Position numbers and translations under genes: made by a program. From the NCBI RefSeq assembly GCF_041886205.1, contig NZ_CP169029.1: a stretch of DNA of 64,000 nt; one strand, written 5' to 3'. Origin of the DNA: Escherichia coli (GTDB lineage: Bacteria; Pseudomonadota; Gammaproteobacteria; Enterobacterales; Enterobacteriaceae). Shown here piece by piece: positions 30,858 through 54,898 of the stretch. The notes under the pieces were generated by a model. That model ran no database searches. It saw only the letters and a list, made by a program, of their open reading frames with translations, and had not been told where the DNA came from. Each line of letters opens with the position of its first letter. The stretch's first letter is position 1.

Positions 30858-31748
30858 ATGGATGCAAAACAAACGCGGCAGGGCGTATTACTCGCTCTTG
30901 CCGCTTATTTTATTTGGGGTATTGCGCCAGCGTACTTCAAGCTAATTTACTACGTGCCCGCCGATGAGATCCTGACGCATCGCGTGATCTGGTCGTTTTT
31001 CTTTATGGTGGTGCTGATGAGTATTTGCCGCCAGTGGTCCTATTTAAAAACGCTGATTCAGACGCCACAGAAAATTTTTATGCTGGCAGTCTCTGCCGTA
31101 CTGATTGGTGGCAACTGGCTACTGTTTATCTGGGCGGTGAACAATCACCATATGCTGGAAGCGAGCCTTGGTTACTTTATTAACCCGCTGGTGAACATTG
31201 TGCTGGGGATGATTTTCCTCGGCGAGCGATTCCGCCGGATGCAATGGCTGGCGGTGATTCTGGCGATATGTGGCGTGCTGGTTCAGTTGTGGACTTTTGG
31301 TTCACTGCCGATCATCGCGCTGGGGCTGGCATTTAGTTTTGCCTTCTACGGCCTGGTACGCAAGAAGATTGCCGTTGAAGCGCAAACCGGCATGTTAATC
31401 GAAACCATGTGGTTGCTGCCCGTGGCGGCGATTTACCTGTTTGCTATTGCCGACAGCTCAACCAGCCATATGGGACAAAACCCGATGTCGCTGAATTTAC
31501 TGCTGATCGCCGCCGGTATTGTCACTACCGTACCGCTGTTGTGTTTTACCGCCGCTGCCACACGCCTGCGTCTCTCAACGTTAGGCTTTTTCCAGTATAT
31601 TGGCCCGACGCTGATGTTCCTGTTGGCTGTGACGTTTTATGGTGAAAAACCGGGTGCCGATAAGATGGTGACTTTCACCTTTATTTGGGTGGCGCTGGCA
31701 ATTTTTGTGATGGATGCAATTTATACGCAGCGTAGAACGTCCAAATAA
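30858..31748 (+). CDS. rarD: EamA/DMT-family transporter RarD
   Basis: 296-aa ORF MDAKQTRQGVLLALAAYFIWGIAPAYFK..., 10 TM segments. Confidence 0.95.
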   Translation: MDAKQTRQGVLLALAAYFIWGIAPAYFKLIYYVPADEILTHRVIWSFFFMVVLMSICRQWSYLKTLIQTPQKIFMLAVSAVLIGGNWLLFIWAVNNHHMLEASLGYFINPLVNIVLGMIFLGERFRRMQWLAVILAICGVLVQLWTFGSLPIIALGLAFSFAFYGLVRKKIAVEAQTGMLIETMWLLPVAAIYLFAIADSSTSHMGQNPMSLNLLLIAAGIVTTVPLLCFTAAATRLRLSTLGFFQYIGPTLMFLLAVTFYGEKPGADKMVTFTFIWVALAIFVMDAIYTQRRTSK

Positions 31749-31842
31749 AAAATAAATATATTCTGAAAAAATATGCTGACTCTTGCATGAGAGTGGGCAT
31801 ATTGCCATGCTGACAGGAGACTAACACAAGGATGTAAAATTT

Positions 31843-32223
31843 ATGTTACGTATGTTTATCCCAACATCTAACGGTAAGATTTCAAGACGTCAGTATATAT
31901 TTTCATTTATTTTAACAAATCTGATTTGTATCCTGCTTATATCTTTTTTTTCCAATGCTGGCTCAGTATTTTTCGTTTTAATATTTACCATTCTTTTACA
32001 TTATCTCGTCATCAATATGAATTGCCAACGGCTCCGTGATAGTGGTTTCACATATATAAAAACTTATATTTTTAGTACATTAGCCATCTATGTCATCTCT
32101 TTCATCACAATGATTGTCGAACATTTTGACTGTTCCGGTAATGGTCCGATGATTTTTTTGATTTTTTATTTTTCCACCTTTGGCATGTTAGTTCTTGCCC
32201 CTACTGATTCACCCCGCAAATAA
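31843..32223 (+). CDS. yigG: Small inner-membrane protein YigG (function unknown)
   Basis: 126-aa ORF with about 3 TM segments in a markedly AT-rich stretch; position matches K-12 yigG. Confidence 0.8.
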
Positions 32224-32237
32224 TTTATGGAGATTTT

Positions 32238-32618
32238 ATGAGTAAGGATTATATGGAAGATGGTTCATTAACTGAAAAGTGGAAGTACCGCTTTTCTTTT
32301 TATGATGAACATGGGTTCCCTGGATTTTGGGGTGCAAGCCCAGAATATAAGAAAGCATTTAAAGCATTAAAACCAAGACAAAGGATAACAATTCAAACAA
32401 ATATTATTGCATTTTTCTTCTCATGGATCTATTTATTTGTCTTGGGATTATGGAAGAAAGCTATTGTTGTTCTAGTGCTGGCAATATTTTCTTTAATTTT
32501 TGGTTACATGATTGGCTATAATGTATTTGGTTTTATCATCGCCGCTTATGTTTCATACAATACCAACAGATGGTTCTATGAAAAAGAAGTAAAAGGTATT
32601 AATACCTGGAATTTATGA
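32238..32618 (+). CDS. yigF: Small inner-membrane protein YigF (function unknown)
   Basis: 126-aa ORF MSKDYMEDGSLTEKWKYRF... with 2 TM segments; AT-rich; 14 nt after yigG. Confidence 0.8.
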   Translation: MSKDYMEDGSLTEKWKYRFSFYDEHGFPGFWGASPEYKKAFKALKPRQRITIQTNIIAFFFSWIYLFVLGLWKKAIVVLVLAIFSLIFGYMIGYNVFGFIIAAYVSYNTNRWFYEKEVKGINTWNL

Positions 32619-32660
32619 ATAACAGGTGGCTTAGCCAGGCTAAGCCACCGCTCTCGTTTT

Positions 32661-49743: not shown

Positions 49744-50940
49744 ATGCTAAAAGTGTTATTGCTCTTTGTGTTGCTGATTGCGGGGATCGTGGTTGGCCCG
49801 ATGATTGCCGGTCATCAGGGTTATGTGCTGATCCAGACCGACAACTACAATATCGAAACCAGCGTCACGGGCCTCGCGATTATTTTGATTCTGGCGATGG
49901 TAGTACTGTTTGCCATTGAGTGGCTACTGCGGCGGATCTTCCGCACTGGCGCGCACACCCGTGGGTGGTTTGTCGGGCGTAAGCGTCGCCGTGCACGTAA
50001 GCAGACCGAACAGGCGCTGCTGAAACTGGCGGAAGGCGATTATCAGCAAGTTGAAAAGCTGATGGCGAAAAATGCCGATCACGCGGAACAACCGGTGGTG
50101 AACTATCTACTGGCTGCCGAAGCCGCGCAACAACGTGGTGATGAAGCACGCGCCAACCAACATCTGGAACGCGCAGCGGAGCTGGCCGGCAATGACACCA
50201 TTCCGGTAGAAATCACCCGTGTACGTCTGCAACTGGCCCGTAATGAAAACCATGCTGCACGCCACGGCGTGGATAAGCTGCTGGAAGTTACGCCACGCCA
50301 TCCGGAAGTATTACGTCTGGCAGAACAGGCGTATATCCGCACAGGTGCATGGAGTTCGCTGCTGGATATTATCCCATCAATGGCGAAAGCCCATGTTGGT
50401 GATGAAGAACATCGTGCAATGCTGGAACAACAGGCATGGATTGGCCTGATGGATCAGGCGCGTGCCGATAACGGTAGCGAAGGTTTGCGTAACTGGTGGA
50501 AAAACCAAAGCCGGAAAACGCGTCATCAGGTAGCGTTGCAGGTGGCAATGGCGGAACATCTTATTGAATGTGACGATCATGATACTGCCCAGCAAATTAT
50601 CATCGACGGCCTGAAACGCCAGTATGACGATCGTCTGCTGCTGCCGATTCCGCGTCTGAAAACCAATAACCCGGAACAGCTGGAAAAAGTGCTGCGCCAA
50701 CAGATCAAAAACGTCGGCGATCGCCCGCTGTTGTGGAGCACACTGGGTCAGTCGCTGATGAAGCACGGCGAATGGCAGGAAGCATCGCTCGCCTTCCGTG
50801 CAGCGCTGAAACAACGTCCGGACGCCTACGATTACGCATGGCTTGCCGACGCGCTGGACAGACTGCACAAGCCGGAAGAAGCCGCAGCGATGCGTCGCGA
50901 CGGTTTGATGTTAACGTTGCAGAATAACCCGCCACAGTAG
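49744..50940 (+). CDS. hemY: HemY protein (TPR-containing inner-membrane protein)
   Basis: 398-aa ORF MLKVLLLFVLLIAGIVVGPMIAGHQGYVLIQTDNY...; starts 2 nt after the hemX stop. Confidence 0.95.
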   Translation: MLKVLLLFVLLIAGIVVGPMIAGHQGYVLIQTDNYNIETSVTGLAIILILAMVVLFAIEWLLRRIFRTGAHTRGWFVGRKRRRARKQTEQALLKLAEGDYQQVEKLMAKNADHAEQPVVNYLLAAEAAQQRGDEARANQHLERAAELAGNDTIPVEITRVRLQLARNENHAARHGVDKLLEVTPRHPEVLRLAEQAYIRTGAWSSLLDIIPSMAKAHVGDEEHRAMLEQQAWIGLMDQARADNGSEGLRNWWKNQSRKTRHQVALQVAMAEHLIECDDHDTAQQIIIDGLKRQYDDRLLLPIPRLKTNNPEQLEKVLRQQIKNVGDRPLLWSTLGQSLMKHGEWQEASLAFRAALKQRPDAYDYAWLADALDRLHKPEEAAAMRRDGLMLTLQNNPPQ

Positions 50941-50950
50941 TTCCTTCTCA

Positions 50951-50981
50951 CCCGGAGGAAAGCACCTCCGGGACCTTTCTG
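50951..50981 (+). terminator. Probable terminator of the hemCDXY operon
   Basis: Hairpin cccggagg-aaagca-cctccggg followed by a T-rich tract, 10 nt after the hemY stop. Confidence 0.45.
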
Positions 50982-51618
50982 ATGCATAAAAAAACGCCTG
51001 CTCTTATTACGGAGCAGGCGTTAAAACAGGTCTGTATGACAACAAGTGGGTGCTTCACTCAACGTTGTGTCCATGGTGTCTGATGAGGCATAAGCGACAT
51101 CTGTCAGTGGACGATAAGCACCGTAAACGGCTCTGCGTCATTCCGGAGTTTATGAGGCACTAAGGCGAACATAAGAGATAGAATGAGCATCTACTCGTTT
51201 ATTATGCCACAGAGAATCGGGAAATAACATCCCTTAACACTTGTTATGAGATAATTCTGTACCCCTCTTTGCTTCCTGAGTAATAACTTCCTGAGTGAAT
51301 ATTTACCCTGAGCTTGATTCTACACATACTCATTATGAATGATAAAATTCATTCAATTAATAACACATATATTAATTGCTGTTAAAACTAAAAACAGCAT
51401 CAATAATCAACGCGATATAATAAACCTGCCTTACATATCAACTGCGCCAGAGGTAGGATTGAAAATGCTCTCCTGATTTTTAAATTCATTTTTGGGATAA
51501 ATAAATAATTTATTTTTATCACTATTATTTATGCAATCATCCTGTCAGGGAGAGGGATCTCAATTATCAATGCTTAATTACGTCATCATTTTGATGACAT
51601 GAAACCGGAGCATTTTGC

Positions 51619-53274
51619 ATGGAATTTTCGTTTTCACCCAAACTTCTTGTTGTTGCTGTCGCCGCCGCTCTTCCTCTCATGGCCAGCGCAGCTGATACCC
51701 CGTCAACTGCCACCGCACGCAAAGGCTTTGCCGGATACGATCACCCAAACCAGTATCTGGTTAAACCGGCGACCACTATTGCCGACAACATGATGCCAGT
51801 AATGCAGCATCCGGCGCAGGATAAAGAAACCCAGCAGAAGCTGGCAGAACTTGAGAAAAAAACCGGTAAGAAGCCCAACGTAGTGATCTTTCTTCTGGAT
51901 GACGTGGGCTGGATGGACGTCGGCTTTAACGGCGGCGGCGTGGCAGTGGGTAACCCTACACCAGATATCGACGCCGTTGCCAGCCAGGGGCTGATTTTAA
52001 CTTCGGCGTATTCTCAACCAAGCTCTTCCCCAACCCGCGCCACCATTCTCACCGGACAATACTCCATCCACCACGGCATTCTGATGCCGCCAATGTACGG
52101 GCAACCGGGCGGGCTGCATGGGTTAACCACGCTGCCGCAGTTGCTGCACGATCAGGGCTACGTCACTCAGGCCATCGGGAAATGGCATATGGGAGAAAAC
52201 AAAGAGTCGCAGCCGCAGAACGTTGGCTTTGATGATTTCCGTGGCTTTAACTCGGTGTCTGATATGTACACCGAATGGCGCGACGTTCACGTAAACCCGG
52301 AAGTGGCCCTGAGTCCGGACCGTTCTGAATACATCAAGCAATTACCGTTCAGCAAAGATGACGTTCATGCAGTGCGCGGCGGCGAACAACAGGCCATTGC
52401 CGACATTACGCCGAAATATATGGAAGATCTGGATCAACGCTGGATGGACTATGGCGTTAAGTTCCTCGACAAGATGGCGAAGAGCGATAAGCCTTTCTTC
52501 CTCTATTACGGCACTCGCGGCTGTCACTTCGATAACTACCCGAACGCCAAATATGCGGGTAGCTCTCCGGCGCGCACCTCTTACGGCGACTGCATGGTGG
52601 AGATGAACGATGTGTTCGCTAATCTGTATAAAACACTGGAGAAAAACGGTCAGCTTGATAACACGCTGATCGTCTTTACCTCCGATAACGGACCGGAAGC
52701 CGAAGTACCGCCGCACGGACGCACACCGTTCCGTGGTGCGAAAGGTTCGACCTGGGAAGGCGGCGTTCGCGTACCGACTTTCGTTTACTGGAAAGGGATG
52801 ATCCAACCGCGTAAATCTGACGGTATTGTCGATCTGGCAGATCTCTTCCCTACCGCGCTGGATCTGGCAGGGCATCCTGGAGCGAAAGTGGCGAATTTAG
52901 TGCCGAAAACCACCTTTATCGATGGTGTGGACCAGACATCCTTCTTCCTGGGAACAAATGGTCAGTCTAACCGTAAGGCCGAGCACTACTTCCTCAACGG
53001 TAAACTCGCTGCTGTGCGTATGGATGAGTTCAAGTATCACGTCCTGATTCAGCAACCTTACGCTTATACCCAGAGCGGATATCAGGGTGGATTCACCGGC
53101 ACAGTAATGCAAACGGCGGGATCGTCGGTGTTTAACCTGTACACCGATCCGCAGGAAAGCGACTCTATCGGCGTGCGCCATATTCCGATGGGTGTACCGC
53201 TACAGACCGAAATGCACGCATATATGGAGATCCTGAAAAAATATCCACCACGCGCGCAGATTAAATCTGATTAA
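51619..53274 (+). CDS. aslA: Arylsulfatase-family protein AslA
   Basis: 551-aa ORF with signal peptide [24 protein letters not shown] and sulfatase signature region ([17 protein letters not shown]). Confidence 0.93.
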
Positions 53275-53310
53275 GCCGGCGCTATCGCTACATCGGGCCA
53301 CACTGACCTT

Positions 53311-53411
53311 GCCGGATGCGATGCTGACGCATCTTATCCGGCCTACAGAACGTTGCAATTTATTGAATTTGCAAGGATTGTAGGCCGGATAAGGCGTTCA
53401 CGCCGCATCCG
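53311..53411. repeat. BIME/RIP-type element: two inverted REP units flanking an IHF-like core
   Basis: gccggatgcgatgctgacgcatcttatccggcctac ... acgttgcaatttattgaat ... taggccggataaggcgttcacgccgcatccggc between the convergent aslA and aslB; the core is identical to the one at 34821..34839. Confidence 0.8.
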
Positions 53412-53439
53412 GCAATCAACCGCAGGCGGCCGCCGATTT

Positions 53440-54675
53440 CTACTTACTCACCACCAGCAAATGCGCCTGCATAATGTCGCTGGCCGGGCGACCGTGCGCC
53501 AGCAAATCAGCCATTGCTTTAAGATATGGCGGTAGATGGCGGAAATAACGCTGATATCCGGCACACAAATAATTCAGCCCCGGTTTGCCGCTGGCATCGA
53601 GCATGAAGCGGTGTTTCGGGCAGCCTCCCCAACATGCTTTTAACACGTTACAACTGCGACACTGCGCCGGTAACTGCTTAAATTTATCTTCACCAAACAC
53701 CTGCTGTTGCGGGGAATCGATCATTTCTGCAATTGTTTGCTGGTGCATATTCCCCAGCCGATATTGCGGATAAACATAGTGATCGCAGGCGTAAACGTCG
53801 CCGTTGTGCTCAACAATCACCGAGCGCCCACAGGTTGGCTGATGATGGCAAACCGCACCCGGCGCACCGACAAAATTGGCAAACGCCCATTCGATATTCA
53901 TCACGAAAATCTTGCCGACGTCGCGTTTGATCCAGTGGTCGAATATCGCCACCAGAAACTCACCGAACTCCTCGGGGCGCACCGACCATTCCGTTAGCTC
54001 ACCCTGAATATCACCAGGCGCATGTAACTTAAGTCCATCGCGGGCAGCTGTTTCATCAGCCAGGCGCTCGACCACCGGAATAAACTGGATGAATTCGACT
54101 CCCACATCGCACAAAAAATCATATACCTGCAACGGTTGCTGCGCGCTGGTGCGATTAACGCAGACCAGCACGTTATAGTCGACATGATGCTTTTGCAGCA
54201 GCTTCAAGGCACGCATCACCAGTTTATGCGTGGGTCTGCCGCCTTTGGTCACGCGATATTGATTGTGGATCTCAGCCGGACCATCCAGCGATAACCCAAC
54301 AAGAAAATGATTTTCTGCCAGAAATGCACACCATTCATCATCGAGCAGCACGCCGTTAGTCTGGAAGCTGTTACTTATCTTCCTGCCAGCACCATATTTC
54401 GCCTGTAGCGCCACGGCACGGCGGTAAAAATCCAGCCCGAGTAACGTTGGTTCGCCGCCCTGCCAGGTAAAAGCCACTTCGTTTTGGGTTTCGCTGGCGG
54501 CGATATAGTGACGGACATACGCTTCCAGCGTGTCATCGTCCATATGCGTGACTGGCTTTTCGCGGTAAATGGATTGTTTTTCGAGATAAAAACAGTAGTC
54601 ACAGTTCAGATTACAATCGGAACCGCTCGGTTTCGCCATCACATGAAAAGCACGCGTTGGAATCTGTTGCAGCAT
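53440..54675 (-). CDS. aslB: Anaerobic sulfatase-maturating enzyme homolog AslB (radical SAM)
   Basis: 411-aa product from MLQQIPTRAFHVMAKPSGSDCNLNCDYCFY... (CxxxCxxC radical-SAM motif); the ORF-track start at 54705 is an upstream extension. Confidence 0.92.
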   Translation of the reverse strand: MLQQIPTRAFHVMAKPSGSDCNLNCDYCFYLEKQSIYREKPVTHMDDDTLEAYVRHYIAASETQNEVAFTWQGGEPTLLGLDFYRRAVALQAKYGAGRKISNSFQTNGVLLDDEWCAFLAENHFLVGLSLDGPAEIHNQYRVTKGGRPTHKLVMRALKLLQKHHVDYNVLVCVNRTSAQQPLQVYDFLCDVGVEFIQFIPVVERLADETAARDGLKLHAPGDIQGELTEWSVRPEEFGEFLVAIFDHWIKRDVGKIFVMNIEWAFANFVGAPGAVCHHQPTCGRSVIVEHNGDVYACDHYVYPQYRLGNMHQQTIAEMIDSPQQQVFGEDKFKQLPAQCRSCNVLKACWGGCPKHRFMLDASGKPGLNYLCAGYQRYFRHLPPYLKAMADLLAHGRPASDIMQAHLLVVSK

Positions 54676-54791
54676 GGTCGCTCCTTGCCTGAAGTCATCC
54701 TTCAATACGTTAAGGGCGAAATCATACCGTGGGACAATGAGTTATTACGGGCGTTTATTGCGAAGGGAGAGTGACGAAATGCACAGAAAAC

Positions 54792-54813
54792 AAAAAACCC
54801 CGCCGAAGCGGGG
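54792..54813 (-). terminator. Rho-independent terminator of the tRNA operon
   Basis: Minus strand: ccccgc-ttcg-gcgggg hairpin followed by TTTTTT, immediately 3' of proM. Confidence 0.8.
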
Positions 54814-54821
54814 TTCAAAAT

Positions 54822-54898
54822 TGGTCGGCGAGAGAGGATTCGAACCTCCGACCCACTGGTCCCAAACCAGTTGCGCTACCAAGCTGCGCTACTCGCCG
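54822..54898 (-). tRNA. proM: tRNA-Pro (anticodon UGG)
   Basis: Reverse complement reads CGGCGAGTAGCGCAGCTTGGTAGCGCAACTGGTTTGGGACCAGTGGGTCGGAGGTTCGAATCCTCTCTCGCCGACCA. Confidence 0.97.

Follow-up and report, generated by a model that had tools for sequence, protein, structure and literature searches.

The spacer between hemY and aslA in Escherichia coli holds the small RNA gene glmZ and an AT-rich divergent promoter region

The spacer between hemY and aslA in a 64-kb stretch of Escherichia coli DNA (hereafter the window) contains the gene for GlmZ, a long-known and already described small RNA. We are highly confident that the spacer is made up of glmZ, on the minus strand at 50988-51194, and an AT-rich divergent promoter region at 51195-51618 that includes a likely aslA promoter. 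The main result is a correction, as a spacer taken to be empty holds a central regulator of the homeostasis of GlcN6P, a precursor of the cell envelope.

The genes upstream of the spacer are hemD, hemX, and hemY (hemY at 49744-50940), all on the plus strand. There are 678 bp between the hemY stop (50940) and the aslA ATG (51619), and aslA is followed by aslB on the minus strand. The gene for GlmZ is convergent with hemY and divergent from aslA. The spacer is found in 5,425 of 5,426 complete E. coli genomes, with 100% identity in six. A first-pass annotation, made from the sequence alone, had marked 50982-51618 as a gene-free, AT-rich region upstream of aslA, an interval that does fall within this spacer.

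The hairpin directly after the hemY stop is the first of two hairpins implied by that annotation, and it is probably the terminator of the hemCDXY operon. Its T-run is too weak for the terminator scan to report it. Its stem is kept among E. coli alleles; the loop and a few stem positions vary.

Table 1. Coordinates of features in and next to the hemY-aslA spacer (window positions)
Feature	Position	Strand	Basis or detail
Hairpin directly after hemY stop, probable operon terminator	50951..50972	+	CCCGGAGG-AAAGCA-CCTCCGGG, then weak T tract ACCTTTCT
glmZ, 207-nt GlmZ (SraJ/RyiA) sRNA	50988..51194	-	Rfam RF00083; K-12 annotation
GlmZ intrinsic terminator, stem-loop 3 and U tail	50988..51022	-	Terminator scan; terminal helix of the Rfam model
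GlmZ nt 145-176, single-stranded linker from stem-loop 2 to terminator	51019..51050	-	Identical to K-12
GlmZ nt 15, U here, C in K-12	51180	-	Five-allele alignment and fold
glmZ sigma70 promoter	51201..51230	-	-35 ATGTTA 51225-51230, N15, TGG 51207-51209, -10 CATAAT 51201-51206
Least conserved middle	51255..51350		Identity 0.47-0.67 vs 0.82-0.97 either side (E. coli, E. albertii, Escherichia L027)
Candidate aslA sigma70 promoter	51430..51459	+	-35 CTTACA 51430-51435, 18-nt spacer, -10 TAGGAT 51454-51459
Small hairpin/palindrome GTCATCA-TTT-TGATGAC	51582..51598	+	RNAalifold; 8 nt upstream of the aslA Shine-Dalgarno GGAG (51607-51610)
aslA, arylsulfatase-like, 551 aa	51619..53274	+	ORF; 99.5% identity to K-12 AslA; K-12 annotation

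The GlmZ gene, its transcription, and its predicted function

A covariance-model search of 50700-51900 with all Rfam families (E<=1) gave a match to GlmZ_SraJ (RF00083) exactly over the glmZ interval on the minus strand, with 215.9 bits (gathering score 60), an E value of 3.2e-57, and coverage of model positions 1-214 of 214. No Rfam family beyond GlmZ_SraJ was found in 50700-51900 at this threshold. In the K-12 reference genome the ncRNA glmZ (b4456) is flanked by aslA and hemY and oriented to them as in the window, and the GlmZ primary transcript is reported to have 207 nt (PMC4152352). The window RNA folds into the expected stem-loops, with a minimum free energy of -58.9 kcal/mol (z = -2.6 relative to shuffled sequences).

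In an alignment with four other E. coli alleles, the window glmZ departs from that of K-12 at nt 15 only. The U here pairs with G51, so that stem-loop 1 has a U-G wobble where K-12 has a C-G pair, and the structure is preserved. This C15U change is a minor allele; 134 of 5,423 complete E. coli genomes carry it, among them the B/BL21 and C strains. The body of the gene is at most two bases off the window sequence among the five alleles; the AT-rich part of the spacer varies. Apart from C15U, the window agrees with K-12 GlmZ in position, promoter string, terminator, and glmS-pairing linker, and we found nothing that contradicts the assignment.

GlmY, the homologous decoy RNA of the same Rfam clan (CL00011), has a related sequence and the same three-stem-loop architecture, and cmscan reports a lower-scoring match of that clan overlapping the GlmZ match. 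GlmY lacks the glmS-pairing linker, however, and its gene lies upstream of glrK-yfhG-glrR, not beside hemY (PMC3045617). The window locus has both the linker and the synteny with hemY, and it is therefore GlmZ and not GlmY. We scanned one genome per species for a conserved GlmZ motif and obtained about 95 Enterobacterales glmZ loci; glmZ adjoins the hemY 3' end in almost all that reach that far, as in the published synteny (PMC3045617).

The NCBI automated annotation of the RefSeq genomes shown has no feature under the glmZ match. The gene is without a label in most E. coli RefSeq genomes, which may be the reason it is easy to overlook, so readers who work from sequence alone can be expected to go on flagging an orphan terminator. 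A consensus scan of 50800-51800 gave exactly one terminator-like site, on the minus strand; it has an 11-pair stem (7 G-C) at 51022..50993 with an 8-nt loop, followed by TTTTTAT. This is the hairpin plus T-run that had been described as ending minus-strand transcription with no gene upstream. The site exists, but since the spacer holds glmZ by both the Rfam match and the K-12 annotation, the seemingly orphan terminator is the 3' end of that gene and the description of the spacer as gene-free is wrong. The accompanying remark that small RNAs could not be excluded was a correct hedge, although the small RNA present is the long-known GlmZ. Two ORFs of 33 and 37 aa at 50982-51163 are antisense to, or within, glmZ.

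The glmZ +1 is at 51194, and the string ATGTTA-N15-tggCATAAT is the same as the verified K-12 promoter. It is identical in the window, K-12, and strain PSS-16, and two further E. coli alleles have one changed spacer base. Goepel et al. used 5' deletions and point mutations in K-12 to show that glmZ has a single constitutive sigma70 promoter, for which sequence upstream of -40 was dispensable (PMC3045617). In the same study, EMSA gave no binding of GlrR to -424..+32 of E. coli glmZ, and glrR and rpoN mutations had no effect (PMC3045617). In strain PSS-16, an IS1A sits some 50 bp upstream of the glmZ +1, and the spacer beyond it is missing together with the first 307 aslA codons. The deletion leaves the glmZ core promoter intact, a natural experiment that agrees with the dispensability of the upstream sequence. 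Shimada et al. predicted a different glmZ promoter, TTGAGA-17-GATGAT, about 340 bp upstream of glmZ (PMC3946193); we set it aside as it conflicts with the mutationally verified one. The window glmZ appears to be an independent unit with its own promoter and intrinsic terminator, and we predict that transcription starts at 51194 from the constitutive sigma70 promoter and ends at the hairpin and U-tract at 51022-50988.

Full-length GlmZ, aided by Hfq, is reported to use its linker (about nt 150-172) for pairing with -41 to -19 of the glmS leader (PMC4152352). The pairing opens a hairpin that masks the glmS ribosome-binding site, leading to more GlcN6P synthase (PMC4152352). When GlcN6P is plentiful, RapZ delivers GlmZ to RNase E for a cut at about nt 151, by which the pairing site is lost; when it is scarce, the small RNA GlmY acts as a decoy for RapZ and counteracts the cleavage (PMC4152352). 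The linker in the window carries the glmS base-pairing site, and nt 151 falls at about position 51044. Because glmS is absent from the window, we used the K-12 glmS leader in a duplex prediction with the linker. The best predicted duplex in -48..+8 spans the published target. Its energy of -22.9 against -18.0 +/- 2.9 for shuffles (61 of 1000 shuffles scored as well) is marginal and would back glmS pairing only weakly. A duplex of whole-length GlmZ with the glmS leader was uninformative, with shuffles scoring better, and was replaced by this linker-only calculation. Based on its likeness to the K-12 RNA, the window GlmZ may act as in K-12, activating glmS and being inactivated by RapZ and RNase E.

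The AT-rich divergent promoter region

The 424 bp proximal to aslA (51195-51618) are a divergent promoter region common to glmZ and aslA, and aslA is the gene served by it. The GC content is 32.3% there, 46.9% in the glmZ segment, 47-48% in the hemY-proximal part of the spacer, and 38% in the whole spacer. The 400-bp block from 51201 has 31.5% GC against the mean of 52.4% for the window; it is the second-lowest 400-bp GC in the window, and 0.11% of 400-bp windows are as low. The earlier wording of strong AT-richness applies to 51195-51618 and not to glmZ, and the A/T run quoted for it lies at 51500-51534.

The spacer aligns end to end among E. coli, E. albertii, and Escherichia L027. In the layout that the alignment points to, the glmZ core promoter is followed by a weakly conserved middle and then by a conserved block proximal to aslA. 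Well conserved within Escherichia are 51391-51430 and 51451-51630, with identities of 0.72-0.97 that are mostly above 0.85. There is a 15-bp tandem duplication, CTTCCTGAGTAATAA at 51272-51286 and CTTCCTGAGTGAATA at 51287-51301, which is single copy in one E. coli allele (strain M172-1, by a 15-bp deletion). The 9-nt inverted repeats in the spacer were discarded as chance occurrences in AT-rich DNA. One of the inverted repeats, 51462-51470 / 51608-51616, touches the aslA Shine-Dalgarno sequence; it is perfect only here (K-12 has a C at 51466) and starts upstream of the predicted aslA transcription start.

We compared the four genera in which aslA is linked to glmZ (Escherichia, Pseudocitrobacter, Superficieibacter, and Kluyvera), among which the rest of the spacer is barely alignable. 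Besides the aslA start and ribosome-binding site, the only motif kept is TTACA-N17/18-TA(G/A)(G/T)AT. The block with the candidate promoter is 0.93 identical within Escherichia. The consensus scan did not list CTTACA-N18-TAGGAT, which falls below the cut-off with 8 of 12 consensus positions (9 required). Its conservation makes this element the likely aslA promoter; transcription would then begin at about 51465-51467, and the 5' UTR would measure roughly 152 nt. A literature search found no mapped start site for aslA. The K-12 aslA promoter predicted by Shimada et al. is TTAACA-18-TGTAAT (PMC3946193); at the corresponding window positions, 51234-51263, the -10 reads TGTACC, and the element is unconserved outside Escherichia, so we did not retain it.

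In K-12 genomic SELEX, Shimada et al. reported that the divergent spacer between aslA and glmZ is bound by RpoD holoenzyme in vitro and marked it as containing an H-NS site, also from in vitro SELEX (PMC3946193). The window spacer resembles the H-NS "type-A spacers" of Shimada 2014 in being AT-rich, in lying between divergent units, and in its RpoD and H-NS SELEX binding. As in H-NS-silenced regions, 51195-51618 is more AT-rich than the average of the window (52.4% GC). The idea of a silenced or heavily regulated promoter region is reasonable for these 424 bp, given the in vitro K-12 SELEX data. The glmZ promoter is reported to be constitutive despite the neighboring H-NS site (PMC3045617). 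On the basis of the in vitro SELEX binding of H-NS in the spacer, aslA is probably silenced or conditionally expressed. A literature text search for in vivo H-NS data gave nothing specific to this spacer. In other work, the CFT073 aslA homologue had a sigmaS/sigma70 ratio of 2.54 in in vitro run-off transcription (PMC3141248), and an indirect dependence of aslA on RpoE was reported in E. coli K1 (PMC9147696).

There are other ways to read the spacer. That it is a gene-free, AT-rich, silenced aslA promoter region with an unexplained minus-strand terminator deserves almost no credence: its AT-rich block, A/T runs, and terminator do exist, and H-NS SELEX binding is reported for the spacer, but one third of it is a 47% GC small RNA gene that ends in that very terminator, and the Rfam match and the K-12 annotation already refute the gene-free and orphan-terminator parts. 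It is also very improbable, if somewhat less so, that 51195-51618 encodes a further unannotated small RNA or small protein besides glmZ. There are two ORFs of 40-45 aa, at 51339-51476 (plus strand) and 51400-51522 (minus strand), and 51391-51430 is 0.87-0.97 identical within Escherichia and without an assigned function. We rejected both ORFs as genes, given lost starts or internal stops in close relatives. The ATG of the 45-aa ORF is replaced by ATA or ATT in E. albertii, L027, and other alleles of E. coli, and in L027 two stops interrupt the frame. Stops also interrupt the 40-aa ORF, in both E. albertii and L027; the small ORFs that had been left open for this spacer are not conserved across these genomes. 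Promoter-like sites are commoner than in shuffles (6 vs 2.0 +/- 1.5), but an excess of such hexamers is expected in AT-rich DNA. There is no Rfam family at E<=1 and no second terminator in this part, and a natural IS1-associated deletion removes the region. The aslA-glmZ intergenic region also serves several laboratories as a neutral chromosomal integration site, a routine use that argues against another gene (e.g. PMC13069688).

A cis-regulatory RNA in the aslA 5' UTR, in which the hairpin at 51582-51598 or a helix of 51466-51477 with 51544-51556 controls translation, is unlikely, though less so than another gene. RNAalifold predicts both helices, with a consensus energy of -28 kcal/mol, and within Escherichia the block 51551-51630 has identities of 0.90-0.97. 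A double change in E. albertii (GACATCA/TGATGTC) preserves one pair of the hairpin, but other alleles disrupt three of its pairs, and the RNAalifold covariation term is +0.4, hence no support. The longer-range helix is invariant and hence uninformative either way. Neither helix is kept in Pseudocitrobacter, Superficieibacter, or Kluyvera, and protein-binding sites could equally account for the conservation. RNAalifold on the putative aslA 5' UTR and the Rfam search gave no covarying RNA structure in the AT-rich part. We retain the reading of the spacer as glmZ plus a divergent promoter region.

Absence of GlrR and sigma54 control elements upstream of glmZ in aslA-linked loci

In Salmonella, Yersinia, and most Enterobacterales, glmZ has a promoter of the sigma54/GlrR (QseF) type, a class defined by a -24/-12 element that ends about 12 nt upstream of +1 and by three GlrR sites 100-300 bp upstream. 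The small RNA gene, the +1, and the TGTGnnATAAT-type -10 of these loci are as in the window, but the window is without their -24/-12 element and GlrR sites. E. coli glmZ is reported to be independent of GlrR and sigma54 (PMC3045617). At least 300 bp are available upstream of glmZ in 82 of the approximately 95 Enterobacterales loci. A first sigma54 pattern was too strict ([TC]TGC missed -12 elements with GTGCA), and a relaxed one was used. Of the 72 loci without aslA, 67 have a correctly spaced -24/-12 element, TGGCAC-N5-TGCA, and five loci without aslAB have also lost the sigma54 motif, such as that of Raoultella, in which the tRNA flank meets glmZ at -151. Most loci with the element also carry TGTC-N10-GACA GlrR sites. 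Both the element and the GlrR sites are absent in all 10 aslA-linked loci, which represent about four genera: five E. coli (including the window), E. albertii, Escherichia L027, Pseudocitrobacter, Superficieibacter, and Kluyvera. Within 330 bp upstream of the window glmZ there is no full or near-full TGTC-N10-GACA site. The aslA-linked loci have 30-34% GC upstream of glmZ, except for one IS1-disrupted locus with 51%.

In loci without aslAB, the upstream neighbors of glmZ are yifK and an Arg-His-Leu-Pro tRNA cluster. The cluster lies about 150-550 bp from glmZ in the 72 loci without aslA, and 253-292 bp from it in Salmonella, Citrobacter, and Enterobacter. Homology of the window to Salmonella arizonae, Citrobacter, and Enterobacter extends from yifK through the tRNA operon terminator to 54777-54786, which corresponds to -253..-292 of glmZ in those genomes. 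On the glmZ side, only the TGTGnnATAAT segment (to about -17) is common. The glmZ +1 and tRNA-Pro are 306 bp apart in S. arizonae and 3,627 bp apart in the window. The order glmZ-aslA-aslB-tRNA-Pro is found in Escherichia and Superficieibacter, and aslA adjoins glmZ in Pseudocitrobacter and Kluyvera.

These limits of homology on the tRNA and glmZ sides place aslAB and the AT-rich spacer where the GlrR/IHF/sigma54 region lies in the other loci. We lean, by a narrow margin, towards the view that an aslA-aslB module of about 3.6 kb with its AT-rich promoter region replaced the ancestral glmZ control region in the four genera. The replacement would have removed about 250-290 bp that carried the GlrR and IHF sites together with the sigma54 -24 element. 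One breakpoint would fall about 17 bp ahead of the glmZ start (~51212), the other immediately after the Arg-His-Leu-Pro tRNA terminator (~54777-54786). The sigma54 arrangement is present in distant outgroups (Yersinia, Serratia, and Proteus), so parsimony favors a replacement in the aslAB lineages over the reverse. Goepel et al. described the upstream region as "variable", noted that the two promoter groups "could not be aligned", and attributed this to mutational divergence (PMC3045617).

As in an islet, aslAB is present or absent between genera at a fixed tRNA-adjacent site. Its composition is not atypical, with 53% GC in aslA and 52% in aslB next to 55% in hemY and 53% in yifK; only the spacer is AT-rich. 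The ORF list contains no integrase or transposase in 51195-54822. These features, the small number of genera (about four) among the ten loci, and the five loci that lost the sigma54 motif without aslAB temper the replacement view, which we put forward as a possible reading and not as the main result.

Meaning for the control of glmZ

The GlrR/sigma54 region is missing from every aslAB-linked locus, a pattern that hints at the way in which E. coli glmZ was rewired, and the replacement of this region by aslAB and the spacer fits the constitutive expression of E. coli glmZ. The comparison is a by-product of the correction at this locus, and it is a modest refinement of the published story rather than a new kind of system. 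If the replacement is true, a single rearrangement, and not gradual promoter mutation, would explain the constitutive, sigma70-only glmZ of E. coli, and it would also explain why a promoter region for aslA lies back to back with glmZ.

The aslAB segment at the glmZ control site

The genes aslA and aslB, together with the AT-rich part of the hemY-aslA spacer (about 3.6 kb), occupy the exact site of the GlrR/IHF/sigma54 control region of glmZ, which is 250-290 bp in most Enterobacterales. This was found by comparing the window and loci L007, L008, L027 (the third Escherichia lineage), L036 and L039 with L078, L100 and L010. The occupied site is bordered by the Arg-His-Leu-Pro tRNA operon terminator on one side and by about -17 of glmZ on the other. 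The sigma54 motif was found in none of the 10 aslA-linked loci, versus 67 of the 72 others.

Five loci have neither aslAB nor, ahead of glmZ, a -24 element for sigma54: L098 (Raoultella ornithinolytica), L040 and L048 (Citrobacter youngae and a relative), L058, and L079. In Raoultella, the flank of the tRNA cluster joins glmZ at -151, rather than at about -260 to -290, which suggests that the GlrR sites were deleted independently.

Features and their coordinates (window unless stated)
Feature	Coordinates	Remark
aslA-aslB and AT-rich spacer	51212-54786	
IS1A site of E. coli PSS-16	51245 onward	L003 3051-3816
Hexamer TGTACC	51258-51263	
15-bp tandem duplication	51272-51301	
GlmZ nt 15	51180	
aslA-aslB convergent gap	53309-53416	57% GC
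AT-rich coding stretch	31731-32620	31-32% GC
YigF/YigG-like ORFs	31843-32223 and 32238-32618	126 aa each

Variation within the spacer

The whole spacer is found at 99% identity or higher in only 10 of 5,425 genomes. It contains a 15-bp tandem duplication (CTTCCTGAGTAATAA / CTTCCTGAGTGAATA), of which E. coli M172-1 has one copy only; this indel polymorphism lies where the spacer is least conserved. For K-12, Shimada et al. predicted an aslA promoter with TGTAAT as its -10 hexamer; the window has TGTACC at that position. In E. coli PSS-16, an IS1A has inserted naturally some 50 bp upstream of the glmZ +1. The remaining spacer is lost along with aslA codons 1-307, and the glmZ core promoter is intact despite these changes.

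Other elements in the window

The aslA-aslB convergent gap holds an element, about 108 bp long, that matches its own reverse complement in comparisons with E. albertii and Escherichia L027. This palindromic element is possibly REP/BIME-like. The only other stretch of the 64-kb window as AT-rich as the spacer is coding, with two neighbouring hydrophobic YigF/YigG-like ORFs flanked by a RarD-like gene and a CorA-like gene.

Annotation and allele of GlmZ

Among the matches listed (H1-H56), NCBI automated annotation of RefSeq E. coli genomes has no feature overlapping glmZ. The gene is annotated solely in the curated K-12 record, with a length of 172 nt versus 207 nt for the primary transcript. 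At GlmZ nucleotide 15 the window strain has U in place of C, which puts a U-G wobble into stem-loop 1; among 5,423 complete E. coli genomes, 134 have this allele, B/BL21 and C among them.
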